This document shows positions 4,774 through 57,491 of a DNA stretch of 64,000 bases, piece after piece. The position numbers and the translations under genes are program-made. Origin of the DNA: Gemmatimonadota bacterium (GTDB lineage: Bacteria > Gemmatimonadota > Gemmatimonadetes > Gemmatimonadales > GWC2-71-9); the NCBI GenBank assembly GCA_003246755.1, contig QKDC01000102.1, forward strand, positions 32,804-96,803, in the 5' to 3' direction. A model generated the notes under the pieces. It had not been told where the DNA came from and did no database searches. It worked only from the letters and a program-made list of their open reading frames with translations. Position 1 is the first letter of the stretch, and every line of letters begins with the position of its first letter.

Positions 4774-4775
4774 GA

Positions 4776-4802: not shown

Positions 4803-4826
4803 TTCTCTCGTTCCCCCGTCAGGATA

Positions 4827-8422: not shown

Positions 8423-8440
8423 AACCGGACTTCCACGCGC

Positions 8441-10141: not shown

Positions 10142-10148
10142 GCGCGCC

Positions 10149-11477: not shown

Positions 11478-11485
11478 TGGGGTCC

Positions 11486-12715: not shown

Positions 12716-13633
12716 TCACGAATCGCCATCACCGCGACGTTTACGTTCCGAATACTCCGCCAGAGAAGCGCGTTCATCGTCGGTCAGGCTTCCGAGACCC
12801 CCGGCACTGATCTTGTCCAGCAAACGATCGATGAGGTCAGTGCTCGAGGGGAGAGGAGGCTCAAGGGATTCCGGCTCGGGAGCAGAGGACTCCGAAAGAT
12901 TGGAACCGTGATCGTGTTCGGCGCGTGCGCGCGTCAGGACGACATGCCGAATCGGCAAGGGCCTGACGGCTCGCGGCTGATGACCTACTGACCAGAGCCG
13001 CCAAAACAGGTAACCCGCGAAGAGCCCACCGACATGGGGGAGGGCCACCGCCGGAACCGGCAAGGCGACACTCGCCGTCAGGACACCGGCGGTGAGCCCA
13101 GCGAGCAGCAGGAGTACCGGGAGTCGTTCCGGGGTGATCCCAGGCGTGTCGTGGGCGCCAATCCATGAGCGTGCAAGGAGGATTCCCAAGACAGGCGCGA
13201 GCGCCCCACCCATGGGTGGGGTGGTGAAGAGCCCAGACAAGACAAGCCCTGCCGCGGCTCCACCGACGGTGCAATAGAGGTAGTACAAGAGAAAACGTCG
13301 CGACCCGAGGTGGTTGGCGACGGCAGGCCCCGTCAGGGAGAGCAGGGCCATGAGGATGGTCACGTGGACGAACCCATCGTGCACCAGCGGATAGGTAACC
13401 AGGGACCATGGCCTCGCCAGAACGGTTGCCGATTCGAAACGAAGTATGGCCCGGATGTCCGGAGCGGTGAACACCGTTGCGAGGCCCACCCAGACCGCGA
13501 GATGAACCACGACCAGGCGTTTGACGAGCACGACTGGGGACACGGGCGCGCGGGGGAGAACGCTGCGGTGCGGACGAGGAAGACGCTGGCTCACACTACG
13601 AAGTCCTTCGGGCGACAGAACTGATCTGCTCAC
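12716..13633 (-). CDS. Rhomboid-family membrane protein, possibly catalytically inactive
   Basis: Rhomboid topology and motifs (TYPLVHDGFVHV, PHVGGLFAGY). No Ser where the GxSG catalytic motif is expected (MGGALAPVLG). A GTG at 13594 is an alternative start that avoids overlap with ddl. Confidence 0.7.
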   Translation of the reverse strand: MSRSVLSPEGLRSVSQRLPRPHRSVLPRAPVSPVVLVKRLVVVHLAVWVGLATVFTAPDIRAILRFESATVLARPWSLVTYPLVHDGFVHVTILMALLSLTGPAVANHLGSRRFLLYYLYCTVGGAAAGLVLSGLFTTPPMGGALAPVLGILLARSWIGAHDTPGITPERLPVLLLLAGLTAGVLTASVALPVPAVALPHVGGLFAGYLFWRLWSVGHQPRAVRPLPIRHVVLTRARAEHDHGSNLSESSAPEPESLEPPLPSSTDLIDRLLDKISAGGLGSLTDDERASLAEYSERKRRGDGDS

Positions 13634-36603: not shown

Positions 36604-36763
36604 GGTCGCGTCTCCAGGTAGTCAGAGCTCCCCTCGGTAACCGAGAGATAATGTACCCCTAGACGCGGCGGGTACCAGAAAGGTTGCAACCAGAGTTGGG
36701 GAGACCTTGCGCAGCCCTCCTGAGCGGCCGATTCTCTGTGACACCTCCACGGAACCGAGATTC

Positions 36764-39535
36764 GTGTCAGACACCATTGCGCGCCTGAATGCCGCCCTTG
36801 CCGACCGCTACCGCCTTGAAGAGAAAATCGGGGCCGGGGGGATGGCGACCGTCTACCTCGCGCATGACCTACGCCACAATCGCAAGGTGGCGCTCAAAGT
36901 CCTTCGGCCCGACCTGGCGGCCCTGATTGGTGCCGACCGCTTCCTCAAGGAGATCGAAACCACCGCCAACCTGCAGCACCCGCATATCCTCCCGCTCCAC
37001 GACTCCGGTGAGGCCAACGGTTTTCTCTATTACGTGATGCCATTCGTCGAAGGCGACACGCTGCGAGACAAGCTCACCCGGGAAAAGCAACTGAGTGTGG
37101 ACGAGGCGATCGACCTGATTCGCGGGGTCGCTGCGGCCCTCGACTACGCGCATCGCAATGGGGTGATTCACCGCGACGTCAAACCGGAGAATGTGCTGCT
37201 CCACGACGGTCAGGCCACGGTGGCCGACTTCGGGATCGCGTTGGCCGTGCGGCAGGCCGGCGGCACCCGACTCACCGAAACCGGACTCTCCATCGGCACG
37301 CCGTCCTACATGAGCCCGGAGCAGGCGATGGGCGATCGCGAACTCGACGCCCGGAGCGACATCTACTCACTCGGCGCCATGCTCTACGAAATGCTCGCTG
37401 GCGAGCCGCCGTTCGTCGGAGGGAACGCACAGGCCATCGTCGCGAAGATCCTGACCGAGGCACCACCGCTGGTGACCAAAGCGCGAGCGACGGTCCCGCC
37501 CCATGTTGCGGCGACGATCCAGAAAGCGCTGGCCAGGCTTCCCGCCGATCGTTTTTCCACCGCCGCCGACTTTACCGCCGCGCTGCTCAACCCGGGGTTT
37601 ACCACCGGAACGGTGACCAATCTCGACGGCCAGCCGAAGCGGTCGCTTTGGAACCCTTTTAGCCTGGCTGCAACGGCTGTGGCCATCGCCGCCATCGTGG
37701 TAGCGGGATGGGTGCTTCTTCGACCCATCGCCAAGCCGGTCACCCGGGTCGTGTTGGGGTTCGCCGCCGGACAACCGGTACCGGCCTACTACGGTGGACC
37801 CACCGACGACCGCCTCGCTCTCTCCCCCGATGGAACGCGACTCGTGTACCAGGTAGGTACAAACGGGGACCATTTTCTTGTCGTTCGTCACCTGGCCCAG
37901 TTGGAGGCACGGACCCTCCCCGGCACCGAGGACGGGGGGTACCCTGATATTTCCCCCGATGGCGAGCGCGTGGCCTTCTTGGATCGGGGAGGTGTGACAC
38001 CGCGTATCAAGGTCGTGTCGCTCGCCGGCGGTCCCGCCACGACGGTGGTCGAAGGGGATGTCGGCAGTCCTCCAGCCTGGAGTTCGAGGGGCGAGCTCTA
38101 TTTCCTCGACGGGAGCGGGTTCGTCGTCCGGAAGGTTTCCGCCGGAGGGGGCCCGGTTGAAGAAGTGGTGCGACTCACTCCTCCAGGCGATCTACCGGGG
38201 TCGAGAGCGGCGACCACCAACCCTACGCTTGGCCTGGGTACTGGCCAGACCTTTGGTGTCTCCACGGGGACAGGACGGTTCAATCACCCTCAGGTGCTTC
38301 CCACCGGCGGCCTGCTCTTGACGTGGGTGCCGAGGGACAATCGCGCGACCAATTTCGGCCTCTACGCCGCGGACCCGGCCACGGGAGCGACCCGCCTCCT
38401 CATGGGCGGGGCTGCCCAGGGACGCTACGCCTCCTCCGGCCATCTGGTCTACGTCACGATCAACGATCAGGACTTCTCGGGTACGCTGATGGCCGTGCGC
38501 TTCGATCTCCGGCAGATGGAGATTCGGGGTAGGCCGCTTGCCGTGACGGAGGGGCTCGACGTCCGGAACCGGGGGAATCTCGACCTCTCGATTTCCGACG
38601 ACGGGACGCTGATCTATTCGACACTGGGCGCCCCAGCCACGGAGGATTTCGTGTGGGTCTCCCGTGACGGTACGGTGGAAATGGTGGACCCAACCTGGAC
38701 CGGCTATCACGAGTTCGAGGGGCTTGCGCTCTCCCCCGACGGCACGCGGCTGGCGGTGGAATTGGCGCAGGATGGCCGGACTGATATCTGGATCAAGCAA
38801 CTCGATCGCGGGCCGCTCTCGCGGCTCACCTTCGACGGGTCGGACAACATCGATCCGTCATGGAGCACCGATGGGCGCTGGGTGAGCTTTCATTCGGTGC
38901 AAGACTCGACGCTCGGCATGTGGCGTCGGGCCGCAGATGGCAGCGGTCCCCCGGAACCGCTGTTCGACATCCAGGGGCCGACGGTCACGCGCTGGTCTCC
39001 CGACGGCGGTTGGCTCCTCGGAGTCCACTTCAGTCCCGAGGGGTCCGATGTGGTCGCGATGGAAATCGGAGTCGACAGCCAGCCTCGGCCCCTCGTGGCG
39101 GAACGGTTCAACGAAACCACACCTGCCCTTTCCCCCGATGGACGATGGCTCGCGTACGCGTCCGACGAGTCGGGGCGTCTCGAGATCTACGTCCGACCGT
39201 TCCCTGATGTCGGGTCCGGGCGGTGGCAAATTTCGACGGACGGTGGCGTGGAACCTCTCTGGGGTCCGAACGGCCGCGAACTGTTCTATCGCAGCAGCGA
39301 CGGGGACGTCGTGCAGGTTGTAGATCTTTCGCGCGGCCCCAACACGCCGATCCACATGACGCCCATCCGACCGGGTGTGACACTGGAACTGAATGATGGA
39401 GAGGTCCTCTACGCCATCTCCCCGGATGGCACACGACTGATGATGATCCAGCAGGCAGGGTCGGGCGACGCGACGGGAGACATCATCCTGGTTCGTAACT
39501 GGTTCGAAGAACTGAAGCGGCAGGTGCCCGAGTGA
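36764..39535 (+). CDS. Ser/Thr protein kinase with TM helix and periplasmic PD40/TolB-like beta-propeller
   Basis: Hanks motifs GAGGMATVYLA, VALKVL, HRDVKPEN, DFG, SPEQ. TM helix LAATAVAIAAIVVAGWVLL. Repeated SPDG(T/R/E) PD40 motifs. GTG 36764 is preferred over TTG 36707. Confidence 0.88.
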   Translation: MSDTIARLNAALADRYRLEEKIGAGGMATVYLAHDLRHNRKVALKVLRPDLAALIGADRFLKEIETTANLQHPHILPLHDSGEANGFLYYVMPFVEGDTLRDKLTREKQLSVDEAIDLIRGVAAALDYAHRNGVIHRDVKPENVLLHDGQATVADFGIALAVRQAGGTRLTETGLSIGTPSYMSPEQAMGDRELDARSDIYSLGAMLYEMLAGEPPFVGGNAQAIVAKILTEAPPLVTKARATVPPHVAATIQKALARLPADRFSTAADFTAALLNPGFTTGTVTNLDGQPKRSLWNPFSLAATAVAIAAIVVAGWVLLRPIAKPVTRVVLGFAAGQPVPAYYGGPTDDRLALSPDGTRLVYQVGTNGDHFLVVRHLAQLEARTLPGTEDGGYPDISPDGERVAFLDRGGVTPRIKVVSLAGGPATTVVEGDVGSPPAWSSRGELYFLDGSGFVVRKVSAGGGPVEEVVRLTPPGDLPGSRAATTNPTLGLGTGQTFGVSTGTGRFNHPQVLPTGGLLLTWVPRDNRATNFGLYAADPATGATRLLMGGAAQGRYASSGHLVYVTINDQDFSGTLMAVRFDLRQMEIRGRPLAVTEGLDVRNRGNLDLSISDDGTLIYSTLGAPATEDFVWVSRDGTVEMVDPTWTGYHEFEGLALSPDGTRLAVELAQDGRTDIWIKQLDRGPLSRLTFDGSDNIDPSWSTDGRWVSFHSVQDSTLGMWRRAADGSGPPEPLFDIQGPTVTRWSPDGGWLLGVHFSPEGSDVVAMEIGVDSQPRPLVAERFNETTPALSPDGRWLAYASDESGRLEIYVRPFPDVGSGRWQISTDGGVEPLWGPNGRELFYRSSDGDVVQVVDLSRGPNTPIHMTPIRPGVTLELNDGEVLYAISPDGTRLMMIQQAGSGDATGDIILVRNWFEELKRQVPE

Positions 39536-44364: not shown

Positions 44365-45575
44365 TGAGTCAGAGGTTGTTGGGTGGGCGTGTCGCCCCGG
44401 TTCTCTTGTTCGGTGTCCTCGCGTCCATACCTCTCGCCGCGCAGTCCGCCGAGCGCACCGAGTCACCGGTTGCGGTGTCTGGGCAAGTGTTCGAAGATCG
44501 CAACGGCAACGGGGTTCGGGACGACGGCGAACCGGTCATGGCAGGGATTGCCGTGTCGGACCAGGTCCAGGTGGTGCGAACTGACACCCAGGGCAGATTC
44601 GCATTCGAGGCCGCGGGATATGGATTCGTATCCGTGGCCCAGCCCACAGGCTTCGTCGTGCGAGGCCCCTTCTGGCGGCGTGTCACGGCCGGCGAGGACA
44701 TGGCCTTTCCGCTGGTACGCATCGGCGAGTCGACCGCGTTCGATTTCCTTCACGCCTCGGACACCCACATCAGCGAGGCGTCGGTCGAACGCACAAGACG
44801 CCTTCGCACCCTTGCCGACTCGCTCAAACCAGCATTTGTACTGATCACCGGCGACCTCGTCCGCGATGCGCTTCGGGTCAATGAAGAGACCGCTCGGGGG
44901 CTCTACGAGATACTCGAACGCGAGATCGCGTTGTTCACCGTGCCGGTCTATACCGTCCCGGGCAATCACGAAATCTTCGGCATCGAGCGCGCGAGTTCAC
45001 TGGTAAGCTCCAAGCACCCCCTCTATGGCAAGCGGATGTACCGGCACTATCTCGGTCCCGACTACTACTCGTTCACCTGGGGTGGGGTGCACTTCGTGGG
45101 GCTCAACAGTGTGGACTACGATGACACCGCGTATCACGGCCACGTGGACGACCTCCAAATGAAGTGGCTCGAACGCGACCTCGCCACGATTGGCGACGAC
45201 ACACCCGTGGTCACCTTCAACCATATCCCGTTCGTGAGTACCGGCCCGGTGCTCTACGGCGTAGATGAAAACAGCGTGGCGCCCACCGTGATCGAGATCC
45301 GAGGCGTGCCCCACTTCCGACACACGGTCTACAACAAGGACCAAGTGCTCGATCTCATCGGCGACAGGCTGGCCATCGCACTCGGTGGCCATTTCCACCG
45401 TCTCGAGAGGGTGGAGTACGAAACGACACATGGGCGACGACGGATCTATCAGACGGCGGCGGTCGTGGGGCCTCCCACCGGAACCGGACCGCTCGGGAGT
45501 GTGTCGGGGGTGACCCTCTACCGGGTGCGGGATCGCATCGTCGACAACGGGACTTTCATCCGATTGGATCCTTAG
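44364..45575 (+). CDS. Metallophosphoesterase with N-terminal SdrD-B/Cna-B-like domain
   Basis: Signal peptide. VSGQVFEDRNGNGVRDDGE (SdrD-B-like). Calcineurin-like motifs HASDTHI, GDLV, GNHE. Confidence 0.8.
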   Translation: MSQRLLGGRVAPVLLFGVLASIPLAAQSAERTESPVAVSGQVFEDRNGNGVRDDGEPVMAGIAVSDQVQVVRTDTQGRFAFEAAGYGFVSVAQPTGFVVRGPFWRRVTAGEDMAFPLVRIGESTAFDFLHASDTHISEASVERTRRLRTLADSLKPAFVLITGDLVRDALRVNEETARGLYEILEREIALFTVPVYTVPGNHEIFGIERASSLVSSKHPLYGKRMYRHYLGPDYYSFTWGGVHFVGLNSVDYDDTAYHGHVDDLQMKWLERDLATIGDDTPVVTFNHIPFVSTGPVLYGVDENSVAPTVIEIRGVPHFRHTVYNKDQVLDLIGDRLAIALGGHFHRLERVEYETTHGRRRIYQTAAVVGPPTGTGPLGSVSGVTLYRVRDRIVDNGTFIRLDP

Positions 45576-47050
45576 TCCACCACGGATGGTGCGCCGGGGC
45601 GGTGTGCCGGTGCGTAGCGTTCGAGGTAGCGGTTTACCCGCACTTTGCGGGCTGTGTTCTTGGAACTCATGTACCGGACCTTCCCGAAGATTGGTCGCTC
45701 CGGACCCCATGGACGATCGTACCGCCCGAACGTCCAGAGAATGCCACTGTACGAGTTTGGGTCCTGGCCATCCAAGGCAAAGCGATCGTTCAGGGTAATC
45801 AAGACGTCGAGGGCGACTTCCGGAGACTCGGACCATTCGAGGACCTTCTTGGCCCACAGCATCCTGAGATAGTTGTGCAGTCTGCCCTCGGTACGCAGTT
45901 GAGTCTGTGCGGCGTTCCACAGGCGGTCGTGGGTGTGTCCTCCCGCGAGCTCCTCGAGGGTGTACAGGTGAGGACGAGGATCGTCGGCGTGGTCGGATAG
46001 CGTGTCACGCGCCCATGTGGGGAGGGAGGAGAAGTCCACATAGTCGTGGCGGTGCTGACACATGTTGTATCCCAGTTCCCGCCATGTCACCAGTTGGTCC
46101 ACGAAATCGGCCCCACCCTCCTGCATCCCCCAGCCAGAGCGGCTTCCACGATCTTCCGGCCGCAACTGGTCCGGGGCCCACTCCGCCCATTCCGCGACGC
46201 GCCAGAAGACGTCATGGGCGCCGATGTGCCCAGCACGCAGATAAGGAGAGAGCTCGCTCGTGGCATCCTCATCGGGGACATTCCGGTCCCGCGCATACCT
46301 CGACAGCCGCGATGTCAAGAAATGATCCAGCGCAATCGCTCCCGCTCGAGCGCCACCTCGCTGCGGGGCGACTCCCACTTCGTGGTCGATCGGCAGCGCG
46401 GTCAATGCGGTGGGTGTCGCGGCCAGGAGCTCCGGGGTGGCGGCGGGCCACCGTGCCGCGATCGCGGGAGGCACTTTACCGAGGGATGGGAGACCCAGGT
46501 CCGAGAGTGGTTCGACGAGCGGTGACTCCGCGAGGTGGTCGCCCAACTCCCGATGCAGGAGACGTCGAAAGGAATAGGCAGTGGGATAGGGTCGCTCCGG
46601 GACTCCGAGCGGAACGAGCCCATTGCTGTCCACCGCTTCGACTCGTGGGCGCATGCGAGGTTCCACATTTCCGTGCGGTCGACGGAGAAAGGCCGGCACG
46701 TCATCGGTCACCACGACCGCGGCGTGCTCGGCCAGGGCTGAGGGGAGGTCGACCCCCTCCCCGGGAGTGGGTTCCACGTAGGGGTAGTAGGTGACCTCCG
46801 TAGTGGCGAATCGGGCGGCGTTGTCGTGCATGCCCTGCAGCGTGAAGGCATGGAGGCGATCGCTGGCCCAGGGATAGGTGATCGGTAGTGTTTCCAGGAC
46901 CACCAGAGGCTTGCTGGTCGCGTGCGCCCAGTGGAGAGCTCGCTCCAAAGCGAAGTTGAATCGGCACCGCCGGGTCGCGTGCATCCAATAGAGCACAAAC
47001 TCGCCGTCACCTCGGACGGGGGTGTCGCGTACGAGTCGCACTCGGTTCAT
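45572..47050 (-). CDS. phr: Class II CPD deoxyribodipyrimidine photolyase
   Basis: ATG 47050 gives MNRVRLVRD..GEFVLYWM. The C-terminal segment GRLHNYLRMLWAKKVLEWS..LDGQDPNSYSGILWTFGRYDRPW..FGKVRYM is the class II photolyase signature. Confidence 0.88.
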   Translation of the reverse strand: MNRVRLVRDTPVRGDGEFVLYWMHATRRCRFNFALERALHWAHATSKPLVVLETLPITYPWASDRLHAFTLQGMHDNAARFATTEVTYYPYVEPTPGEGVDLPSALAEHAAVVVTDDVPAFLRRPHGNVEPRMRPRVEAVDSNGLVPLGVPERPYPTAYSFRRLLHRELGDHLAESPLVEPLSDLGLPSLGKVPPAIAARWPAATPELLAATPTALTALPIDHEVGVAPQRGGARAGAIALDHFLTSRLSRYARDRNVPDEDATSELSPYLRAGHIGAHDVFWRVAEWAEWAPDQLRPEDRGSRSGWGMQEGGADFVDQLVTWRELGYNMCQHRHDYVDFSSLPTWARDTLSDHADDPRPHLYTLEELAGGHTHDRLWNAAQTQLRTEGRLHNYLRMLWAKKVLEWSESPEVALDVLITLNDRFALDGQDPNSYSGILWTFGRYDRPWGPERPIFGKVRYMSSKNTARKVRVNRYLERYAPAHRPGAPSVVD

Positions 47051-47140
47051 TGGCACCACGGTCGACACTCCCGGCAAGACTGATCGGATGGCATGCGAGA
47101 GGGAGGTGGGACAATGCCCACCTCCTTCCCGCACCGCCGG

Positions 47141-47668
47141 TTAGAAGTTCGCTCGAAAGCCTAATCCGAAAGGCCAGACCCAGCCGGCCTTGGTACCGAG
47201 CTCAGCCTCCTTGGTGAAGGCGATATCTCCCTGGGGGCTGATCAGGAGATCGAACTGATCCGAGAGCGCGATGGCGATTTTGGCGCCCGCGTTGATCGCG
47301 GGATAGGTGAAGCTTTCTGCCAAATCTCCGCCGAATTGGACGAGGCCGCCGCCCAGGTTGACCGTCACGGTCACCTTCTCGGAGGTGTAGAGATCGTAGC
47401 CGACCTTCCCCATCAAGTGGTAGGTGTTGATCTTCCCGGTTTCACCCTTGATGCCATGGTAGCCGACATCCCCGTCGACCATGAGGCGGATCCGGTCGCT
47501 CGCGAGATAGCCCAACCCTGCACCGAATCCAGGGCCGACTTCGGCGGCATCGGCGATCCCGAAGGTTGGCACCACGGCCACGCCGCGCGCCTCAAGGCTG
47601 AACTGCGCCTCTGCCGGACTGGCCAGCAGGGCGAAGAGTGCCAGGACTGGCAAGGACTTCTTGATCAT
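47141..47668 (-). CDS. Small outer-membrane beta-barrel protein
   Basis: ATG 47668 is preceded by AAGGAG. Signal peptide MIKKSLPVLALFALLASPAEA, alternating beta-strand pattern, and a C-terminal ..GFRANF (terminal Phe). Confidence 0.75.
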   Translation of the reverse strand: MIKKSLPVLALFALLASPAEAQFSLEARGVAVVPTFGIADAAEVGPGFGAGLGYLASDRIRLMVDGDVGYHGIKGETGKINTYHLMGKVGYDLYTSEKVTVTVNLGGGLVQFGGDLAESFTYPAINAGAKIAIALSDQFDLLISPQGDIAFTKEAELGTKAGWVWPFGLGFRANF

Positions 47669-47757: not shown

Positions 47758-47786
47758 AGAATACACAACCGGAGCTTGTTTGTCAA
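47758..47786 (-). promoter_or_regulatory. Predicted sigma-70 promoter for the OM-barrel/photolyase operon
   Basis: On the minus strand: TTGACA (47786-47781), 17-nt spacer, TATTCT (47763-47758). Confidence 0.55.
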
Positions 47787-47797
47787 GCGTTTGTCTA
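47776..47797 (-). promoter_or_regulatory. Two tandem 11-bp direct repeats (candidate CarH/LitR operator)
   Basis: Minus strand TAGACAAACGC (47797-47787) followed by TTGACAAACAA (47786-47776). The second repeat is the -35 of the minus-strand promoter and both lie in the spacer of the plus-strand promoter. Confidence 0.5.
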
Positions 47798-47804
47798 GTA
47801 TTCT
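47776..47804 (+). promoter_or_regulatory. Predicted promoter for the SDR/DUF2867 gene
   Basis: TTGTTT (47776-47781), 17 nt, TATTCT (47799-47804). An alternative is TTGTCT (47791), 16 nt, TATTCT (47813). ATG at 47832. Confidence 0.4.
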
Positions 47805-47831
47805 ATTGGACATATTCTCTACAAAGGTGTC

Positions 47832-49310
47832 ATGAGCAACCAGAACAGCGCGCGACGAGTGTTGGTGACGGGGGCCTCAGGCTATGTGGGCGGGCGACTT
47901 GCCCCGCGCCTCGCGGCGGCGGGGTTCGGGGTCCGGTGCTTAGCCCGGCGGCCGGAGGAACTGGCGCACCGGATGCCGGGCGGTGTCGAAGTGGTCGGCG
48001 GTGACCTGCGGGACCCCGCAGCCGCACGATCGGCGCTCGAGGGGGTGGAAAGCGCCTTTTATCTCGTGCACTCGATGGGGCGCTCCGAGCACTTCGCGTC
48101 TGAGGAGGCCGCGATGGCCACCACATTTGCCGAGGCGGCGAGGGACTCGGGTGTTCGACGTATCATCTACCTCGGCGGGCTTGGGGCTGACGGTCGGCTC
48201 TCCCCGCACCTCGCATCACGCCAACGCGTCGGGGAGTTGTTACGGGCCTCAGGTGTGCCAACCATCGAATTCCGGGCGTCGATCGTCATTGGATCCGGGA
48301 GCCTGTCGTTCGAGATGATTCGCTCGCTGGTCGAGCGGCTTCCGGTCATGGTGACCCCCCGATGGGTGAGCAAGAAGGCCCAGCCGATCGGGATCGAAGA
48401 CTTGCTGCAGTATCTGATAGCCGCGCTCGCCCTCGAGGGGTCCACGTCCGGGGTGTTCGAGATTGGGGGAAAGGACCAGGTGTCCTACCGTGACCTGCTC
48501 CTCGAATATGCTCGGCAGCGAGGGCTGCACCGCGTCATGATACCGGTACCGGTGCTGACGCCGCGTCTGTCCAGTCTCTGGCTCGCTCTCGTGACACCCG
48601 TGTACGCCAGGGTCGGGCGCCAGTTGGTCGATTCGATTCAGCACGATACCGTGGTAACCGACGAGCGAGCTCTTGCCGTTTTCCCCCTTCGACCCGCGGG
48701 CATGAGTGCTGCCATCGCCCGTGCCTTGGCCAATGAGGATCGCGAGTTTGCGGAGACGCGGTGGTCGGATGCCTTCTCATCCTCGGGGTTGTCGATGCAC
48801 TACGGTGGGGTCTCTCTCCACCGCCGCATTATCGACTCCCGGGCCATCAACGTTCCCGTTCCACCAGCTGTTGCTTTTCGACCCATCGAGCGCATCGGCG
48901 GAGCCAATGGGTGGTACTTCGCCGACTCGGTCTGGACACTCCGGGGTTGGCTCGACCTTCTCGCCGGTGGTGTTGGGATGCGCCGAGGCCGACGCGATCC
49001 CGAACAACTCGTGCCGGGAGATGCCGTGGACTGGTGGCGCGTGGAGGCCGTGGATCGCGGCGTCCGTCTCCGACTCCGGGCGGAGATGAAACTGCCCGGA
49101 CGTGCATGGTTGCAGTTCGATGTCGAAAGAGCGGAAGGGGGGAGTGTGGTCCGTCAGACGGCCCTCTTCGACCCGCGGGGCTTGCTGGGGCTCCTCTATT
49201 GGTATGCCCTCTACCCAATTCACGTGATCATCTTCCGAGGCATGCTGCGCGAGATTCAGCTGCGGGCTATCGCGCTGGCCTCGTCGACCAACTCCACAAC
49301 TTCGGTCTAG
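47832..49310 (+). CDS. Atypical SDR/NmrA-like NAD(P)-binding protein with C-terminal DUF2867-like domain
   Basis: Rossmann motif VLVTGASGYVGGRL. A ~200-aa C-terminal extension typical of SDR-DUF2867 fusions. Confidence 0.8.
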   Translation: MSNQNSARRVLVTGASGYVGGRLAPRLAAAGFGVRCLARRPEELAHRMPGGVEVVGGDLRDPAAARSALEGVESAFYLVHSMGRSEHFASEEAAMATTFAEAARDSGVRRIIYLGGLGADGRLSPHLASRQRVGELLRASGVPTIEFRASIVIGSGSLSFEMIRSLVERLPVMVTPRWVSKKAQPIGIEDLLQYLIAALALEGSTSGVFEIGGKDQVSYRDLLLEYARQRGLHRVMIPVPVLTPRLSSLWLALVTPVYARVGRQLVDSIQHDTVVTDERALAVFPLRPAGMSAAIARALANEDREFAETRWSDAFSSSGLSMHYGGVSLHRRIIDSRAINVPVPPAVAFRPIERIGGANGWYFADSVWTLRGWLDLLAGGVGMRRGRRDPEQLVPGDAVDWWRVEAVDRGVRLRLRAEMKLPGRAWLQFDVERAEGGSVVRQTALFDPRGLLGLLYWYALYPIHVIIFRGMLREIQLRAIALASSTNSTTSV

Positions 49311-50245
49311 GCGCTGACGACCAGGGCTTGGAGCACGGCTCTCAGGCTCGGCACGTCTCTCACCCATACCCCTCGAAGCTGGCGGATCGTCTCTTCGTAC
49401 GTCTGCGAAGCTTGTCCTCCCACGAGAAGTGCCACCCCCTCCCCGAGGAGTTGACCTAAGTGCATCAACTCGTCCCGGATATTCGGCGCCGTGGTCGTGA
49501 TACTGACCGCCACGGCGCGGGCGCGGGTGGCCTCGGCGACGCGGGCGATTTCCTGCGCTGGCAGGTCGCCCGAGAGGAACATGGTTCGCCAACCCTCCAA
49601 TGCCGCGACTGCGGTTACCAGGAGCGCACCCAATTCATGTCGCTGCTGAGCTGGAGTCGCGACGAGGATCAGTGGCGCCTCGTCTCCGGGTTGCAGGGTT
49701 TCCGTGAGACGCATGAGTGTCTGTCGGAGTAGCCCAGAGGCTAGGTGTTCGTAGCCCGCTGACATCTCCCCGGTATCCCAGAGTCGGCCGATCTCATACA
49801 TCAATGGGCGAGCGACGGACTCGAGGAACACCAAGGGTGGCAGGGCACTACAGGCCCGTTCGAGCCCCAGGCGCAAACGCTTCGGATCACAGGCGGTCGC
49901 CGCACCCACGACCTCTCGCAGATATGGGGTGGCGTCGTGCTCGTCAGTGCGCCCTGTCGCTGGAGTGCGGGTGCCTTCTGCCGCGCGATCCTCCGCCACG
50001 AGTTGCTGGAGTTCGGGGAGCCCCAGTCGGGCGACCTGCCCCACCCGGCGTCCAGCACCGATCGCCAACCGGATCAGGCGGAGCCGCTCCACGTCGAGAT
50101 CCGAGTACCGGCGCCGACCCGTCGTGCTCCGACCTGGGGTAACCGCCTCATAACGGCGTTCCCACGCGCGCAGGACGTCGGCCGTCAATCCCGCTCGGCG
50201 GGCCACGACCTGAATCGGGTGGCGGGGCTCGGTGGAGAATTCCAT
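49307..50245 (-). CDS. carH: MerR-HTH plus cobalamin-binding light-responsive regulator (CarH/LitR family)
   Basis: ATG 50245 gives [38 protein letters not shown] (MerR HTH). Helical bundle with W-x9-E-H ([12 protein letters not shown]). Rossmann B12 signature QRHELG..x41..SIT..x26..GG. Confidence 0.85.
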
Positions 50246-50255
50246 TTCAGAGGAC

Positions 50256-50284
50256 AAACTAGAGAAACGTACACCCTTTGTCAA
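50256..50284 (-). promoter_or_regulatory. Predicted promoter of the carH-like gene (near-leaderless)
   Basis: Minus strand TTGACA (50284-50279), 17 nt, TAGTTT (50261-50256). The ATG is only 10 nt after the -10. Confidence 0.5.
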
Positions 50285-50294
50285 ATATTGGTCT

Positions 50295-50316
50295 TTGACA
50301 AAACCTTGACAACATG
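50295..50316 (+). promoter_or_regulatory. Two tandem 11-bp direct repeats plus an inverted third copy (candidate CarH/LitR operator)
   Basis: TTGACAAAACC (50295-50305) followed by TTGACAACATG (50306-50316). An inverted copy, TTTGTCAAA, is at 50277-50285, and GACAAAC at 50253-50259. Confidence 0.55.
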
Positions 50317-50334
50317 GCATTCACTCGATATAAT
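50306..50334 (+). promoter_or_regulatory. Consensus sigma-70 promoter for the fasciclin/lipid-modification operon
   Basis: TTGACA (50306-50311), exactly 17 nt, TATAAT (50329-50334). Both hexamers match consensus perfectly in a GC-rich genome. AAAGGAG Shine-Dalgarno at 50401 before ATG 50414. Confidence 0.65.
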
Positions 50335-50413
50335 CATCGACAGGTGCTGGACAAGCTGTCTTTTCGAGCAACCGTGCTCAACATGTCGTTCAACCTCGGA
50401 AAAGGAGTTCACC

Positions 50414-50917
50414 ATGTTTCGTGCTGTCATCCCCGCTGTCGCCCTCGCTGCTCTGGGGTTTGCACCCCAGGCCGCCGTTGCCCAGACCAAGGCTCCGGCG
50501 CCGGATATCGTTGAGATTGCCGCATCTGCCGGCACCTTCAACACGCTGGTCGCCGCGGTCAAGGCCGCTGGCCTGGTCGATGTACTGAAGAGCGATGGCC
50601 CGTTCACGGTCTTTGCCCCGACCGATGAGGCGTTCGCCAAGCTCCCGGCGGGCACCGTCGAGAGTCTCCTCCTGCCGGAGAACCTCGAGCAGTTGAAGGC
50701 CGTGCTGACCTATCACGTTGTAGCCGGAAAAGTGCTCGCCAAGGATGTGGTCGGGCTCAAGACCGCCAAGACGGTGCAGGGGCAGTCGCTGACGGTCAAG
50801 ATCATGAATGGGGTACCGATGGTCGATAACGCCCAGGTGATCAAGACCGACATCATGGCCAAGAATGGCGTGATTCACGTGATCGATCAGGTCGTGTTGC
50901 CCAAGACCAACAAGTAG
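50414..50917 (+). CDS. Secreted fasciclin (FAS1) domain protein
   Basis: Signal peptide [26 protein letters not shown]1 motifs [10 protein letters not shown] and [13 protein letters not shown]. The track ORF 49937..50917 is trimmed to the ATG preceded by a Shine-Dalgarno. Confidence 0.88.
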
Positions 50918-51040
50918 TTTCCAGGGCCGCCTGCGGTGGACCGCCCTTCTCTGGTCCATCGCAGGTAGGTTCCCTCCAACTCGATATCGCCCCTCCGCTT
51001 GGGATGCGATGTCACCTGATGCACTGAGGAGACGGTGAGC

Positions 51041-51928
51041 ATGGGTTGGATCTCTCGGGTGGCCAAGTCGTTTGTCTTGTGGTTCGACACGCATGCCGTT
51101 GCTCCGGACACGATGTTGGCCAAGGACGTGGTGGACTGGTACCGCGTGATCCCCTTCATCGCCGTGCACGTGGCCTGTCTCGGTGTGATCTGGGTGGGAT
51201 GGAGCTGGACAGCGGTCGCAATCGCGGCGGGTCTCTACGCCGTGCGCATGTTCGCCATTACGGGGTTCTACCACCGGTACTTTTCACACCGCACCTTCCA
51301 GACCTCTCGCCTGACGCAATTCATCTTCGCCCTCCTGGGTGCCAGCTCGGCTCAGCGGGGTCCGCTCTGGTGGGCTGCCCATCATCGAAAGCACCACAGA
51401 CACTCGGACACCGAGCTCGATGTGCACTCCCCTGGGCAGCATGGCTTCTGGTGGAGTCACATGGGGTGGATCACGGCGCCGGGCAACTTCCCCACGGACC
51501 TGAACGAGGTGCGGGATCTCGCGAAGTATCCCGAACTACGCTTCCTGGATCGTTTCGATATCCTGGTTCCGGCCGCACTGGCCGCGACCCTGTTCCTGCT
51601 GGGCGGTGCGCAGTGGCTGATCTGGGGATTCTTCGTGAGCACCGTTGTGTTGTTCCACTGTACCTGCTTCATCAACTCGCTGGCACATCAACTCGGGACG
51701 CAACGCTACGATACCGGCGACCACAGCCGCAACAGCTTCTTGTTGGCCCTCGTCACCTTCGGGGAGGGGTGGCACAACAACCACCACAAGTATCCCGGGG
51801 CAGCACGTCAGGGATTCTTCTGGTGGGAAATCGATCTCACCTACTACGGTCTCTGGCTACTGGCGCGGCTGAGAATCATCTCCGATCTGCGGGGGGTGCC
51901 ACACCGTCTCCTCCAAGCACGCTCCTGA
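51041..51928 (+). CDS. Membrane acyl-lipid/acyl-CoA fatty acid desaturase (three-His-box)
   Basis: His boxes HRYFSHR, HRKHHRHSD and HNNHHKYP. ATG 51041 follows GAGGAG; the track start GTG 51035 is also possible. Confidence 0.88.
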   Translation: MGWISRVAKSFVLWFDTHAVAPDTMLAKDVVDWYRVIPFIAVHVACLGVIWVGWSWTAVAIAAGLYAVRMFAITGFYHRYFSHRTFQTSRLTQFIFALLGASSAQRGPLWWAAHHRKHHRHSDTELDVHSPGQHGFWWSHMGWITAPGNFPTDLNEVRDLAKYPELRFLDRFDILVPAALAATLFLLGGAQWLIWGFFVSTVVLFHCTCFINSLAHQLGTQRYDTGDHSRNSFLLALVTFGEGWHNNHHKYPGAARQGFFWWEIDLTYYGLWLLARLRIISDLRGVPHRLLQARS

Positions 51929-53157
51929 TGCGGATTGCGATCGTGGGGAGTGGGGTATCGGGCCTGATCGCGGGGTACCTGTTGTACCCCATGCATGACG
52001 TGACCGTGTTCGAGGCCGATTCGAGGATCGGTGGCCACGTCAACACGATCCCGGTGACGATCGACGGGAATGTCTGGCCCGTGGATACAGGATTCATTGT
52101 CTACAACGAACGCAACTACCCCCTCTTCACCAGGCTGCTGGCGCGACTCGGTGTCGAGACCCAGGCGTCTTCCATGGGGTTCAGCGTCCGCTGTGCCAGC
52201 ACGGGACTGGAGTACAACGGGTCGAGTCTTCGACAGCTGTTTGTCCAACCTCACAATCTCTTGCGCCCGCGATTCTATCGCATGCTGCGGGACATCCTCC
52301 GCTTCAATCGCGAGGCCCCGCGGGACGTGGCCGGCGGGACCGCAGCGACCATTCTGGGCGACTACCTGCAGGCTGGGGGGTATGGGCGGGAGGTGAGGGA
52401 CCACTACCTCGTCCCCATGGGCTCCGCATTGTGGTCGATGCCGCGGAAGAGCGTCACCGAGATGCCGACAGCGTTCTTCGTGCGGTTCTTCGAGCAACAC
52501 GGAATGCTCACCGTGGATGATCGACCCGAATGGCGCGTCGTGACCGGGGGCTCGGACCGCTACGTGAAGGCTCTGACCGCCGGATTCGGCGAGGCGATTC
52601 GCACCCGGTCACCCGTGCACGAGATTCGTCGCGCAATAGACCATGTTCGGGTGAATGGCGAGCGCTTCGATCAGGTGATTCTCGCCTGCCATGCCGATCA
52701 GGCTTTGGAAATGCTGGCGGATCCGTCACCCGCCGAAAGCGAGATTCTCGGGAGCTTCCCCTATCAACACAACGAGGCACTGCTCCACACCGATACCTCA
52801 ATACTTCCCAGCCGATCGCGTGCGTGGGGCGCCTGGAACTACTACCTCCGTGGTGATGCTGAGTCGGCTGCGACCGTGACCTATGACATGAACATCCTCC
52901 AGACCCTCTCCGCCCCCGAGACGTTCTGCGTGTCGCTCAACGCCGAGGACATCGTCGATCCGGCAAGGGTGTTGCACCGGGTGGCGTACACCCATCCCCA
53001 ATACACTGCCAAGGGACACGCAGCACAGGCACGTCGCGCCGAAATCAGCGGCCGAAGGTGCACGCATTACTGTGGCGCCTACTGGGGGTTTGGATTTCAT
53101 GAGGATGGTGTGCGGAGCGGGGTCGAGGCAGCGAAAGGGTTCGGGGCAGACCTGTGA
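51928..53157 (+). CDS. NAD/FAD-binding oxidoreductase (amine-oxidase/COG2907-like)
   Basis: MRIAIVGSGVSGLIAGYLL..VFEADSRIGGH dinucleotide-binding motif. The ATG overlaps the desaturase stop (TGATG). The N-terminal part of track ORF 51046..53157 is an out-of-context extension. Confidence 0.85.
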   Translation: MRIAIVGSGVSGLIAGYLLYPMHDVTVFEADSRIGGHVNTIPVTIDGNVWPVDTGFIVYNERNYPLFTRLLARLGVETQASSMGFSVRCASTGLEYNGSSLRQLFVQPHNLLRPRFYRMLRDILRFNREAPRDVAGGTAATILGDYLQAGGYGREVRDHYLVPMGSALWSMPRKSVTEMPTAFFVRFFEQHGMLTVDDRPEWRVVTGGSDRYVKALTAGFGEAIRTRSPVHEIRRAIDHVRVNGERFDQVILACHADQALEMLADPSPAESEILGSFPYQHNEALLHTDTSILPSRSRAWGAWNYYLRGDAESAATVTYDMNILQTLSAPETFCVSLNAEDIVDPARVLHRVAYTHPQYTAKGHAAQARRAEISGRRCTHYCGAYWGFGFHEDGVRSGVEAAKGFGADL

Positions 53158-53912
53158 AAAGTCGACTCTACATCGGAGCCGTCCGACACCGTCGGTTTCA
53201 CCCAGTGCCCCACGCATTCCGCTACCCCCTCTTCATGCTCTATCTGGACCTGGCGGAACTCCCCGTGGTGTTCGACGGGCGCTGGCTCTGGTCGGCCAGA
53301 CGCCCCGCTCCAGCCTGGTTTCGCCGAGCCGACTACCTCGGCGACGCAGCCGTACCGCTGGCCGACGCGGTGCGCAATACCGTATCGGCACATGGGGGCA
53401 AGCCACCCACCGGACCGATCCGGATGCTCACCCACCTCCGGTACTTCGGGTACGTACAGAACCCGGTCACCCTCTACTACTGCTTCGACACGGACGACCG
53501 TTCCGTCGATACGATCGTGGCGGAGATCACCAACACCCCGTGGGGTGAGCGGCACGCCTATGTCCTGACGCGCGAGGACAATCTGGGGAAGAACGGAGTG
53601 CAGCGGTTCCGGTTCGAGAAGGCATTCCATGTCTCCCCGTTCATGGCCATGGATCACCAGTATGATTGGCGGTTCAACGAACCGGGACGACGGCTGGTGG
53701 TACATATGGAAAACCGTCAGGCCGGCTCGAAGATCTTCGACGCCACCTTGGCGTTACGACGGGAGGCAATGACGGGTCGTGCGCTGGCGTCCGCGCTCGC
53801 GCGCTATCCCTGGATCACGGCGCGGGTAGCCCTGGGGATCTACTGGCAAGCACTGCGGTTGGGGATCAAGCGGGTCCCCTTCCACACGCATCCACGAAAG
53901 CAGGTTACATGA
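53154..53912 (+). CDS. DUF1365 family protein
   Basis: MKSRLYIGAVRHRRFHPVPHAFRYPLFMLYLDLAEL is the characteristic DUF1365 N-terminus. GTGA overlap with the upstream stop. Confidence 0.85.
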   Translation: MKSRLYIGAVRHRRFHPVPHAFRYPLFMLYLDLAELPVVFDGRWLWSARRPAPAWFRRADYLGDAAVPLADAVRNTVSAHGGKPPTGPIRMLTHLRYFGYVQNPVTLYYCFDTDDRSVDTIVAEITNTPWGERHAYVLTREDNLGKNGVQRFRFEKAFHVSPFMAMDHQYDWRFNEPGRRLVVHMENRQAGSKIFDATLALRREAMTGRALASALARYPWITARVALGIYWQALRLGIKRVPFHTHPRKQVT

Positions 53913-55144
53913 GATTGCTCCAGGAGCTCACGGAAAGGGCAGTCCGTCAACGCTTGCACCGATTGACACATGGAAGACTCACACTCAACTACGAGACTTC
54001 CACCACGGTCTTCGGTCAGGGCAACGGTCCGGCGGTCAGTGTGACAGTCCACGACTCCGCCTTCTTCACCGCACTCGCCTTCGGAGGGCACCTCGGTGCC
54101 GCCGAGGCCTACATCGACGGGGCATGGGAAACCGACGACCTCACCAGTTTGGTACAGCTCTTTCTCAAGAACCGCGATGTCCTCGACGGACTGGAGCGGG
54201 GGTGGGCCCGTCTCGTGCAACCGGTGCGGAAAGCACTCCACGCGTTGAGCCGAAACTCCCGGTCCGGGAGTCGTCGTAACATTCGGGCACACTACGACCT
54301 CGGCAACGAGTTCTTCGCACTCTTCCTCGACGACACGCTCACCTACTCCTGCGGCGTCTTCGAGCACGAGAGCAGCACCATGCGGGACGCCTCCGTGGCC
54401 AAGTACGACCGGCTCTGTCGCAAGCTGGAGTTGTCGCCGGAAGATCATGTTCTGGAAATCGGCACCGGGTGGGCCGGTTTCGCCGTACACGCGGCGAGTA
54501 CGTATGGTTGCCGGCTTACGACCACGACGATCTCCGAGCAACAGTATCAACTTGCGATCAAGCGCGTCGCCGACGCCGGACTCACGGATCAGGTCACCGT
54601 CCTGCGGCAAGATTACCGCGACCTCGAGGGTAGCTTCGACAAACTCGTCTCCATCGAGATGATCGAGGCGGTCGGGCATCAATACTTCGACACCTACTTT
54701 GCACAGTGCGCGCGCCTCCTCAAGCCGCATGGTCTCGCGGCGATCCAGGCGATCACCATCCAGGACCGGTACTACGATTCCGCGCGTCGCGAGGTGGACT
54801 TCATCAAGCGCTACATTTTTCCGGGCAGCTGCATTCCCGCCGTGTCCGTCCTGGCGGCATCGGCCGCGCGTACCGATCTCCGGTTGGTGCACCTCGATGA
54901 CATCACACCCCACTACGCCGAGACACTCCGGCTCTGGCGGAACCGATTCGTCGCGAACTGGGACCGCATCAAGGCCTTAGGGTTCTCGGCTGAATTCAAA
55001 CGACTCTGGGAGTTCTACTTCTGCTACTGCGAAGGCGGATTCCGCGAAGCCGTGCTGGGTGACGTGCAACTGCTGTTCGCCAAGCCCGCCGCGCGTCCTG
55101 CACTGGCAAGGCCTGGAGCCACATCGGTGGTCACCCCCGCATGA
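53909..55144 (+). CDS. Cyclopropane-fatty-acyl-phospholipid synthase family SAM methyltransferase
   Basis: CMAS family: HYDLGNEFFALFLD, SAM motif VLEIGTGWAGFA, C-terminal FYFCYCEGGF. ATGA overlap with DUF1365. Confidence 0.9.
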   Translation: MRLLQELTERAVRQRLHRLTHGRLTLNYETSTTVFGQGNGPAVSVTVHDSAFFTALAFGGHLGAAEAYIDGAWETDDLTSLVQLFLKNRDVLDGLERGWARLVQPVRKALHALSRNSRSGSRRNIRAHYDLGNEFFALFLDDTLTYSCGVFEHESSTMRDASVAKYDRLCRKLELSPEDHVLEIGTGWAGFAVHAASTYGCRLTTTTISEQQYQLAIKRVADAGLTDQVTVLRQDYRDLEGSFDKLVSIEMIEAVGHQYFDTYFAQCARLLKPHGLAAIQAITIQDRYYDSARREVDFIKRYIFPGSCIPAVSVLAASAARTDLRLVHLDDITPHYAETLRLWRNRFVANWDRIKALGFSAEFKRLWEFYFCYCEGGFREAVLGDVQLLFAKPAARPALARPGATSVVTPA

Positions 55145-55911
55145 TATCACTCGTCCTCATCGGGTGGGCGGTGCTCGCGGTCGCCCTCGGCCTGCTCTGG
55201 GCCCGTCAGTTGGTCACTAAGAATGCCACCAGTGTCGACGTTGCCTGGTCGGGTGGACTGGCATTTCTGGCTGGGTACTACGCGTGGTTCGCCGAGGGCG
55301 ACACCACCCGCCGGGCGCTGGTGGGAACCCTCGCCGGACTCTGGGCCCTGCGACTGGCATGGCATCTCCTGAGTGATCGTGTGTTGCGACACACGGAGGA
55401 AGACGGTCGCTATCGCGCGCTTCGGGCGGAGTGGGGGTCGCGTGCCGGACGGAACTTCTTCTTCTTCTACCAAGCCCAGGCGGCAGTGGCCGTGCTGTTT
55501 TCCCTCCCCATCCTCGCGGCGATGCGCGGAGGAGCCGTGGATACACTCGCCTGGGCTGGGGTGTTGATATGGTTCGTTGCCGTCGGTGGCGAGACGTTGG
55601 CCGACCACCAACTCGCGCGTTTCAGGGCTGATCCGACGAACCGGGGTCACGTCTGTCAGACGGGTCTTTGGCGCTACTCGCGACACCCGAACTACTTCTT
55701 CGAGTGGGTCCACTGGTGGGCCTACGTTGTGATTGGCACAGGCGCCTGGCTCACCTGGACCGGTCCTGTGCTGATGCTCCTCTTTCTCTTTCGACTCACC
55801 GGGATCCCTTACACCGAACAGCAGGCGCTCCGCAGTCGAGGGGACCGCTATCGCGAGTATCAGCGCACCACGAGCGTGTTCATCCCCTGGTTCCCCCGGA
55901 AGTCGTCGTGA
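55141..55911 (+). CDS. DUF1295 family membrane protein (steroid-reductase/ICMT-like fold)
   Basis: Multi-TM protein with GLWRYSRHPNYFFEWVHWW. ATGA overlap with the upstream gene. Confidence 0.85.
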   Translation: MISLVLIGWAVLAVALGLLWARQLVTKNATSVDVAWSGGLAFLAGYYAWFAEGDTTRRALVGTLAGLWALRLAWHLLSDRVLRHTEEDGRYRALRAEWGSRAGRNFFFFYQAQAAVAVLFSLPILAAMRGGAVDTLAWAGVLIWFVAVGGETLADHQLARFRADPTNRGHVCQTGLWRYSRHPNYFFEWVHWWAYVVIGTGAWLTWTGPVLMLLFLFRLTGIPYTEQQALRSRGDRYREYQRTTSVFIPWFPRKSS

Positions 55912-56954
55912 GTCCCGCACTCGGTGTTGCCTTGGCCGAACGCGGACTGGTGCCGCTTCCTGGGCTTCGGCTCGGTATCCGTCGACTTCTGGTCGAGCGG
56001 CTTCGGGAGCAAGCCGGGGCGCCCGGTATCGAAGACTTTCTCCGCGAACTCGAACGCGCTCCGATTGCGCTCCAGCCGGAGAAGGCCAACCAACAGCATT
56101 ACGAAGTGCCGCCGGCGTTCTTCGAACTCGTGCTCGGCCCACATCTCAAGTACAGCGGCGCCTACTGGCCCGAGGGGACTCGGGACCTCGGGGAGGCAGA
56201 AGCTCGCATGCTCGCCCTGACGTGTGAGCGTGCCGAGCTTGCCGATGGTCAAGCCATCCTGGAGTTGGGTTGCGGATGGGGATCACTGACGCTGTACATG
56301 GCCCGGCAGTTCCCGGCGAGTCGGATCGTCGCGGTATCCAACTCTGCCCCGCAACGACGGTTCATCGAGGCTCGGGCACCAGACAACGTCGAAGTCATCA
56401 CCGCCGATATGAACACATTTGCGACGGATCGCCGGTTCGACCGTGTGGTGAGCGTCGAAATGTTCGAGCACATGCGGAACCATCGCGAATTGCTGCGGCG
56501 CATTGCAGGGTGGCTCGGCGAGGATGGCAGGCTCTTCGTGCATGTGTTCTGCCATCACACATACGCCTACCTGTTCGAGACTGACGGCGAACACGACTGG
56601 ATGGGCCGGTTTTTCTTCACCGCCGGTCTCATGCCGTCCTATGACATGCTGCCTCGGATCGATGGCGACCTCGAACTCGACGCGCGGTGGCCCGTGAACG
56701 GTATTCACTACGCCAGGACGGCTGCGGCGTGGCGAATCAATCTCGAGAGACGTCGTCTGGAGGTAATGCACGTGTTGCGGGACACCTACGGAGGCGACGC
56801 CGAGCGTTGGTACCACCGTTGGCGACTCTTCTTCCTTGCCTGCGAGGAGCTGTTCGCCTATCACGACGGTGAGGAGTGGTTCGTAGGCCACTACCGTTTT
56901 CGGCCGCGCCTGCAACCCGAGTGTGGCCAGAGCACCCAGCCCGCTGATCCATGA
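55908..56954 (+). CDS. Second CMAS-family SAM-dependent methyltransferase
   Basis: GTG 55908 (GTGA overlap). ANQQHYEVPPAFFELVLGPHLKYSGAYW, SAM motif ILELGCGWGSLTLYMA, C-terminal WRLFFLACEELF. Confidence 0.85.
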   Translation: MSPALGVALAERGLVPLPGLRLGIRRLLVERLREQAGAPGIEDFLRELERAPIALQPEKANQQHYEVPPAFFELVLGPHLKYSGAYWPEGTRDLGEAEARMLALTCERAELADGQAILELGCGWGSLTLYMARQFPASRIVAVSNSAPQRRFIEARAPDNVEVITADMNTFATDRRFDRVVSVEMFEHMRNHRELLRRIAGWLGEDGRLFVHVFCHHTYAYLFETDGEHDWMGRFFFTAGLMPSYDMLPRIDGDLELDARWPVNGIHYARTAAAWRINLERRRLEVMHVLRDTYGGDAERWYHRWRLFFLACEELFAYHDGEEWFVGHYRFRPRLQPECGQSTQPADP

Positions 56955-57415
56955 CCTCAAACCTGCTCGAGCGTCGACAAGTGCTTCCCGCGCCCCTGGA
57001 AGAAGTGTTCGCCTTCTTCAAGGACCCGCTCAACCTGAGCATCATCACCCCGCCATGGCTCAATTTTCGTGTGCGCCGGATGACCGATCCGGTCGTGCGA
57101 CGTGGAACCAGGATCGGCTATGACATCAGGTGGATGGGCTTGCCCATGCGATGGGAGTCGGTCATCGCCGAGTACATCGAAGGGGAGCGGTTTGCCGACG
57201 AGATGATTCGAGGACCCTACACCCACTGGTATCATCTCCACTCCTTCCGCCGCGTGCCGAATGGCACCGAAGTGGGCGACCGGGTGGATTACGAACTACC
57301 GCTCGGCCCGGTCGGGAGGCTGGCACACCGTGTTCTGGTCCGCCGGCAACTCGAAGGGATCTTCGACTTCCGCAGGCGCCGATTGGAAAAGATCTTCCCG
57401 AAAGATCCGGGATAG
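56951..57415 (+). CDS. SRPBCC (START/cyclase-dehydrase-like) lipid-binding family protein
   Basis: 154 aa with VFAFFKDPLNLSIITPPWLNF..GPYTHWYHLHSF, typical of the COG4276-type SRPBCC. ATGA overlap with the upstream gene. Confidence 0.75.
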   Translation: MTSNLLERRQVLPAPLEEVFAFFKDPLNLSIITPPWLNFRVRRMTDPVVRRGTRIGYDIRWMGLPMRWESVIAEYIEGERFADEMIRGPYTHWYHLHSFRRVPNGTEVGDRVDYELPLGPVGRLAHRVLVRRQLEGIFDFRRRRLEKIFPKDPG

Positions 57416-57491
57416 GCCCGCCACGGTCCCCCTTGCGCCGACAGGCCGAGAGCCCGATTCTACGAGCTTCAACTCCCAGGACACACCCTCA

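Follow-up and report, generated by a model that had tools for sequence, protein, structure and literature searches.

A predicted CarH/LitR-type operator of paired 11-bp repeats between divergent photolyase and SDR genes in a Gemmatimonadota genome

The window analysed here, meaning the whole 64-kb stretch of DNA, carries on its minus strand a gene for a class II CPD photolyase (45572..47059), recognised through PDB entries 2XRY and 8OET (E about 1e-71) and giving no Pfam-A match at E 1e-3. Public gene calls place its start at 47059 (495 aa) and not at the first GTG at 47134. The neighbouring gene on the same strand encodes an OM beta-barrel (47141..47668; Pfam OMP_b-brl), and the two, for which L047 provides gene calls, are presumed to form one co-transcribed operon (45572..47668, minus strand). 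Divergent from them lies a gene for an SDR (NmrA/NAD_binding_10) fused to DUF2867 (47832..49310, plus strand; Pfam). Further along, Pfam matches outline a plus-strand lipid operon (50414..57415), predicted to be carried on a single transcript, with the order fasciclin, fatty-acid desaturase, amine oxidase, DUF1365, CMAS, DUF1295, CMAS and polyketide cyclase. Taken at full ORF length, both CMAS genes (53154-55144 and 55141-56954, plus strand) run ~250 nt into their upstream neighbours (53666 versus 53912 and 55668 versus 55911). The true starts probably lie more 3', which is where the gene calls of relatives (411 and about 340 aa) put them. Two genes, at 36707-39535 and 57261-60122 (both plus strand), encode large Ser/Thr protein kinases with PD40/beta-propeller repeats at the C-terminus, and the second of them comes directly after the lipid operon; in the related loci L056 and L057, the litR cluster is likewise flanked by kinases. 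A full-length RNase P RNA of bacterial class A (2756-3139, plus strand, 285 bits) is the sole Rfam match in the window.

Between the SDR gene and the lipid operon, 1.5 kb from the repeat pair described below, Pfam, PDB matches and the public gene call identify a CarH/LitR-type regulator of 312 aa (litR; 49307..50245, minus strand) with a MerR-type HTH followed by both B12-binding domains. MerR_1 (E 2.8e-14, residues 36-98 of the long ORF) aligns to the DNA-binding domain of Thermus thermophilus CarH (TtCarH), with a recognition-helix stretch close to LSAEVLRQWERRY of that protein; PF02607 (B12-binding_2, four-helix bundle) and PF02310 (B12-binding, Rossmann-type) follow with E-values of 9.6e-08 and 1.2e-10. 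The best PDB matches are T. thermophilus LitR (3WHP) and CarH (5C8D), both at E about 1e-20. A W-x9-EH motif is present and aligned with AWHRGEIGVAEEHLAS of TtCarH; this motif caps the upper axial adenosyl group and defines class I LitR/CarH proteins. At the axial histidine, LitR has QQRHELGA versus GERHEIGA in TtCarH, so that the His and Gly of (D/E)xHxxG are conserved and its first, acidic residue is replaced by Gln.

The 47.8-kb spacer, between the OM-barrel and SDR genes, holds on its minus strand the repeats TAGACAAACGC (47797-47787) and TTGACAAACAA (47786-47776), which the initial annotation had pointed out and which are indeed adjacent and in an 11-bp register. Set in the published CarH register, the units become ATACTAGACAA (47801-47791) and ACGCTTGACAA, and both fit TnnACA. 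The upstream core, TAGACA (47792..47797), was recovered by motif search and by a position weight matrix (PWM), and the downstream core, TTGACA (47786-47781), doubles as the predicted -35 of the OM-barrel/photolyase promoter, with the -10-like hexamer TATTCT (47763-47758) 17 nt 3' of it. An independent promoter scan returned this sigma-70-like site with 10/12 matches, in agreement with the promoter proposed earlier, and its transcription start site (TSS) is predicted at ~47751 on the minus strand. TTGACA is the sigma-70 -35 consensus, so some of the repeat signal is promoter and not operator. No third or fourth tandem repeat adjoins the minus-strand pair, as neither flanking 11-bp unit, read on both sides, fits TnnACA. 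Rfam yielded neither a riboswitch nor any further RNA within or close to this spacer, which rules out an RNA element as the explanation. A terminator-like hairpin, GCTTG-TTTGT-CAAGC (47774-47788), was discounted, as it has a 5-bp stem, lacks a proper T-run and arises merely from TTGACAAGC adjoining GCTTG.

The 50.3-kb region was expected to mirror this architecture of an upstream repeat followed by a repeat that equals the -35, and it does so in sequence and in both the motif and promoter scans. The predicted fasciclin/lipid-operon promoter and operator (50295..50353, plus strand) consist of TTGACA-N5-TTGACA, the second copy being the -35, then 17 nt and TATAAT (50329-50334), a 12/12 site in the promoter scan; 2 nt past TATAAT a second pair begins, TCGACA-N5-TGGACA (50337-50353, plus strand). 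Eight fasciclin-type promoters (that of the window and those of seven relatives) have the common layout T(G/A)GACA-N5-TTGACA(-35)-17 nt-(-10)-2 nt-TnGACA-N5-TnnACA. In the opposite direction, the predicted litR promoter (50256..50284, minus strand) uses TTGACA (50284-50279) as both repeat and -35 and TAGTTT (50261-50256) as -10, with a 17-nt spacer that contains the pseudo-repeat TGTACG (50273-50268). The same order of -35 repeat, N5, repeat or pseudo-repeat within the spacer, and -10 is found before litR in the related loci L049, L057 and L058. Within 50918-51034, ahead of the desaturase gene, neither reading of the sequence nor the PWM revealed a repeat pair or promoter-like site, and the desaturase is therefore assumed to be transcribed from the fasciclin promoter. 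An imperfect inverted repeat between the fasciclin and desaturase genes (50918-50975, plus strand; CCTGCGGTGGACC ... GGTCCATCGCAGG) has no T-run and is a possible attenuator or processing site.

On the plus strand of the 47.8-kb spacer, the hexamers that the initial annotation had assigned to the SDR gene are present, namely TTGTTT (47776-47781), 17 nt and TATTCT (47799-47804), with the minus-strand repeats lying in the spacer between them. These hexamers are weak, matching at 3/6 and 4/6 positions, and the predicted promoter (47776..47804, plus strand) was called from the sequence and from a geometry that matches the fasciclin promoters. Between its -10 and the SDR start codon we found a second direct-repeat pair that had not been described before, TGGACA-tattc-TCTACA (47807..47823, plus strand), which scores 15.7 bits with a PWM trained on relatives only. 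This pair begins 2 nt past the predicted -10 (TATTCT-at-TGGACA), exactly as in the fasciclin promoters, and this agreement of the 3' half supports the -10 call of the initial annotation. The position of the pair suggests that it covers the predicted SDR start site and leader. Since the SDR gene has a plus-strand pair of its own, the predicted 47.8-kb operator would comprise four repeats and not two.

How far these repeats depart from chance was assessed within the window. The sequence TWGACAAA has four matches in 64 kb versus 0.83 expected, a count reached in 1/100 shuffles, and all four lie in the 47.78-kb and 50.28-kb intergenic regions. The earlier proposal of four repeat copies sharing T(T/A)GACAAA holds insofar as there are four matches and both spacers contain them, but one of the 50.3-kb copies (50284-50277) belongs to the minus strand, and the plus strand has TTGACAAC as its second copy at 50.3 kb. 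The conserved core is TnGACA rather than T(T/A)GACAAA. The tandem form TNNACA-N5-TNNACA, which renders the published CarH rule and is the better-grounded motif, likewise has four matches in 64 kb, versus 0.42 expected, and here 0/100 shuffles reached four. Its sites, at 47797-47781 (minus), 47807-47823 (plus), 50295-50311 (plus) and 50337-50353 (plus), are confined to the two intergenic regions flanking litR. With the relatives-only PWM, which contains no sequence from the window, the minus-strand pair at 47.8 kb ranks first in the window at 30.7 bits (maximum of 18.1 in 20 shuffles), and the six best matches all fall in the 47.8- and 50.3-kb spacers. The repeat pair is far beyond chance.

A search for LitR homologues returned proteins up to 58-60% identical, those with names coming from Gemmatimonadota/Gemmatimonadales MAGs, and their contigs were compared. 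Nine litR-homologue loci were used, 126.7 kb in all and probably from Gemmatimonadota MAGs, with LitR identities of 43-60%. Together they hold 27 tandem pairs versus 0.76 expected, a ~35-fold enrichment (maximum of 4 in 100 dinucleotide shuffles). As a control, 46 distant, non-orthologous loci with B12-binding domains (25-39% identity) contain six pairs in 447 kb. Each pair that was compared with the gene tables fell in a non-coding gap next to litR or to a photolyase, desaturase, fasciclin or OM-barrel gene. The neighbours of litR are themselves conserved among the relatives, comprising fasciclin, SDR-DUF2867, a photolyase-like gene, an OM barrel, and the series desaturase/amine oxidase/DUF1365/CMAS/DUF1295/CMAS. 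The order of the lipid genes beside litR is identical in L053, L055 and L057, a Pfam-less photolyase-like gene of roughly 490 aa adjoins litR in most relatives, and SDR-DUF2867 lies there within a fasciclin operon headed by repeat pairs. Photolyase, SDR and lipid operon had previously been linked into one predicted regulon, and this grouping is borne out at the nine other loci, where such genes adjoin the sites or belong to site-headed operons; the same is true of the OM-barrel and fasciclin genes.

The content of the predicted regulon differs among lineages. In L053, crtY/crtI/crtB lie directly 3' of litR (8989-12577), and L051 carries genes for RudS (2-thiouridine desulfidase plus DUF1722) and for a DPRP-type (FeS-BCP-like) relative of photolyases (4668-5645 and 10481-12040). 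In L054, a TonB-dependent receptor gene precedes litR and a cob(I)alamin adenosyltransferase gene (CobA_CobO_BtuR) follows it (8001-9545), with repeat pairs at 7828 and 5241 on the minus strand. Such neighbours would fit a need for making or importing the AdoCbl chromophore.

The initial annotation had proposed that the repeats should be conserved in orthologous intergenic regions. The closest SDR homologue (71% identity) is encoded on L060, a contig of the sample that also gave L057, the locus of the closest LitR relative. The SDR gene of L060 is divergent from a photolyase-like gene, as in the window. The sole tandem match on this contig, TATACAAACGCTTGACA, is located in the photolyase/SDR spacer. 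A pairwise alignment of the two spacers shows CTA-ACAAACGCTTGACA as their longest stretch in common, and L060 keeps TAnACAAACGCTTGACA while the flanks have diverged, which upholds the proposal. The upstream core TAGACA is TATACA in L060, and the downstream repeat is retained as an identical AAACGCTTGACA in both L060 and L055. The plus-strand ACA cores, visible as their TGT complements, are also retained in L060, both in register, and the minus- and plus-strand pairs are offset by 10 bp in the window and in L060 alike. At the SDR promoter, L060 offers an alternative, TGGACA-17-TAGATT, with a -10 ~3 nt further upstream, and for this reason the exact SDR -35 and -10 hexamers stay a prediction. 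On the other side of the spacer, L060 has a predicted promoter and then a leader of ~255 nt before the photolyase-like gene (2476-2730). In the window this place is taken by the OM-barrel gene, which suggests that one lineage has gained or lost the OM barrel.

We consider it highly probable that the minus-strand repeat pair is one half of an operator for an AdoCbl-dependent CarH/LitR repressor, the one encoded at 49307-50245 on the minus strand. Motif, promoter scan and conservation all favour the operator and the divergent promoters that were predicted initially, to which a putative regulator of the CarH/LitR type can now be assigned. In the dark, each 11-bp repeat, with its TnGACA core, would be contacted by one MerR-type DNA-binding domain of an AdoCbl-bound oligomer. 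Occupied at 47781-47823 (~43 bp), the operator would mask the OM-barrel/photolyase -35 together with the spacer, the surroundings of the -10, the start site and the leader of the SDR promoter, so that one occupied block would shut both directions. The same protein, bound at 50268-50353, would repress litR itself and the fasciclin/lipid operon. On illumination, AdoCbl would be photolysed and the oligomer would dissociate, allowing all four transcripts to be made. A single light regulon would then comprise the class II photolyase, the OM barrel, SDR-DUF2867, litR, fasciclin and the desaturase/DUF1365/CFA-synthase-like lipid genes. In this scheme, DNA binding and repression, the response to light and the oligomeric state are inferred from knowledge of the family, and the TSSs and operon boundaries are predictions. 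Points that weigh against it are the Gln at the first position of (D/E)xHxxG, the weak SDR -35 (TTGTTT), the slightly different -10 suggested by L060, and the number of good tandem repeats, which is two per strand, whereas characterised CarH tetramers engage three or four in one orientation.

It may be that LitR binds these sites and acts in some other manner, either as a light-dependent activator or as a B12-independent, CarA-like repressor in need of an antirepressor. The family does include such variants (PMC9758184, PMC9304148), and light-dependent activation is reported for class III LitR. The Gln in place of the acidic residue of (D/E)xHxxG is a further point in favour. However, the position of the sites, over the -35 and over the leader, is typical of repression, both B12 domains, the W-x9-EH motif and the axial His are present, and the cobalamin adenosyltransferase gene of L054 follows litR. 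In addition, 17-nt spacers and near-consensus hexamers mean that activation of the MerR type is not needed. We regard a different mode of LitR action as improbable.

A similarly small probability attaches to the sites being the operator of another regulator, be it a different MerR- or TetR-type protein or a factor whose gene lies beyond the window. The link between LitR and the sites consists of proximity, co-occurrence and likeness to the published CarH repeat, which leaves room for such a protein. On the other hand, the sites accompany litR homologues of 43-60% identity at every locus compared, the promoter of litR itself included, they obey the TnnACA/11-bp rule of CarH, the recognition helix of LitR is near that of TtCarH, and the motif is scarce at the distant B12-domain loci. 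Still less probable, to the point that we give it hardly any weight, is that the repeats are only promoter elements, a set of sigma-70 -35 hexamers, tandem or alternative, in a compact divergent promoter region that lacks a dedicated repressor site. The -35 consensus and the recovery of both strong sites by a plain promoter scan speak for it. Against it, no -10 belongs to the partner T(G/A)GACA, which sits exactly 11 bp upstream, more pairs cover the leader past the -10 (at 50337-50353, at 47807-47823 and in seven relatives), and the enriched tandem motif is restricted to litR-linked spacers.

Returning to the CarH/LitR operator, the spacing of its repeats suggests a higher-order arrangement. 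Same-strand distances from T to T peak at 11, 31, 42 and 53 bp, and back-to-back repeats on opposite strands are 11 bp apart in 11/13 cases; in the window the corresponding distances are 11 bp (50284/50295) and 10 bp (47797/47807). At three loci, back-to-back repeats at 11 bp occur with no divergent gene, as we read the gene tables (L049 at 10567, within 10551-10594; L051 at 13311-13327; L054 at 5241-5257), suggesting that the opposite-strand repeats belong to the operator and not to a second promoter. We tentatively propose, as a possibility short of even probability, that the operator of this clade is a head-to-head unit of four repeats, two per strand and diverging from a centre, whose four T residues would fall on an even 11-bp ladder. 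One tetramer, engaging all four of its DNA-binding domains with two-fold symmetry, would there shut two divergent promoters, and strong promoters would add a further pair 42 bp downstream. Such a unit would fit the earlier idea that one bound repressor shuts both directions. Alternatively, there may be two adjacent two-repeat operators.

The predicted light switch comes with a named regulator, some 14 target genes and four promoters, whose TSSs are predicted at ~47751 (minus), ~47811 (plus), ~50249 (minus) and ~50341 (plus), in a lineage for which we found no published work on B12-based photoreception; a literature search on CarH/LitR in Gemmatimonadota gave nothing relevant. The regulon would couple DNA photorepair by a class II photolyase to a conserved lipid-modification cluster, fasciclin, an OM barrel and the widespread and uncharacterised SDR-DUF2867 protein. 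Several domains of unknown function would thereby gain a functional context in the response to light or to photo-oxidative stress. The paired head-to-head geometry could inform how flexibly CarH tetramers read DNA and is relevant to CarH-based optogenetic tools.

Canonical MerR-type activators use a palindromic site within an over-long (19-20 bp) spacer between -35 and -10. In contrast, all four window promoters have 17-nt spacers, and their direct repeats overlap the -35 or the leader. In Thermus, LitR acts at the litR-crtB divergent region, where one regulator in a short spacer serves two divergent transcripts, one of them its own. The 47.8-kb region is similar in having one predicted regulator site in a short spacer between two divergent transcripts, but here neither transcript encodes the regulator and the targets differ.

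In Pseudomonas, the LitR regulon includes photolyase, short-chain dehydrogenase, FAD oxidoreductase and furan/cyclopropane-type fatty-acid synthase genes, and there are two LitR sites per promoter, at the -35 and between TSS and start codon (PMC9758184). The system predicted here resembles that of the class II LitR proteins PplR1 and PmlR2 in its very similar regulon content and in its sites at the -35 and in the leader. Unlike the LitR of the window, however, the Pseudomonas class II proteins have no Rossmann-type B12 domain, and light is sensed via LOV partners. Their site is palindrome-like, TGTACA-N12-TGTACA, with T(G/A)TACA-N12-TGTA(C/T)A as its degenerate form, and allowing up to one mismatch it has no match in the window.

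The closest likeness of site and protein is to CarH of Thermus thermophilus, Bacillus megaterium and myxobacteria, with which LitR shares its domain architecture, the W-x9-EH motif and the axial His. CarH operators are built of tandem 11-bp direct repeats, 5'-nnnnTnnACAn-3', one of them with the -35 TTGACA; there are three repeats in Thermus and four in B. megaterium, in one orientation, and operators with one or two good repeats are also bound (PMC9304148). The predicted operator follows this plan in its 11-bp TnnACA direct repeats, one of which carries the -35 TTGACA, and an autoregulated gene would again lie beside its targets. It differs from the CarH operators, which have three (T. thermophilus), four (B. 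megaterium) or five (Mx) repeats in one orientation, in having two good tandem repeats per strand. The second pair is placed head-to-head with the first, 10-11 bp away from T to T, and fasciclin-type promoters have a further pair 42 bp downstream. The core here is TnGACA, and the predicted targets are photolyase, lipid-modification, SDR and OM-barrel genes, whereas CarH mainly controls carotenoid genes. By domain content, cofactor motifs and operator type, the predicted system would be a class I LitR/CarH system, a well-supported new example of a known family and not a new mechanism.
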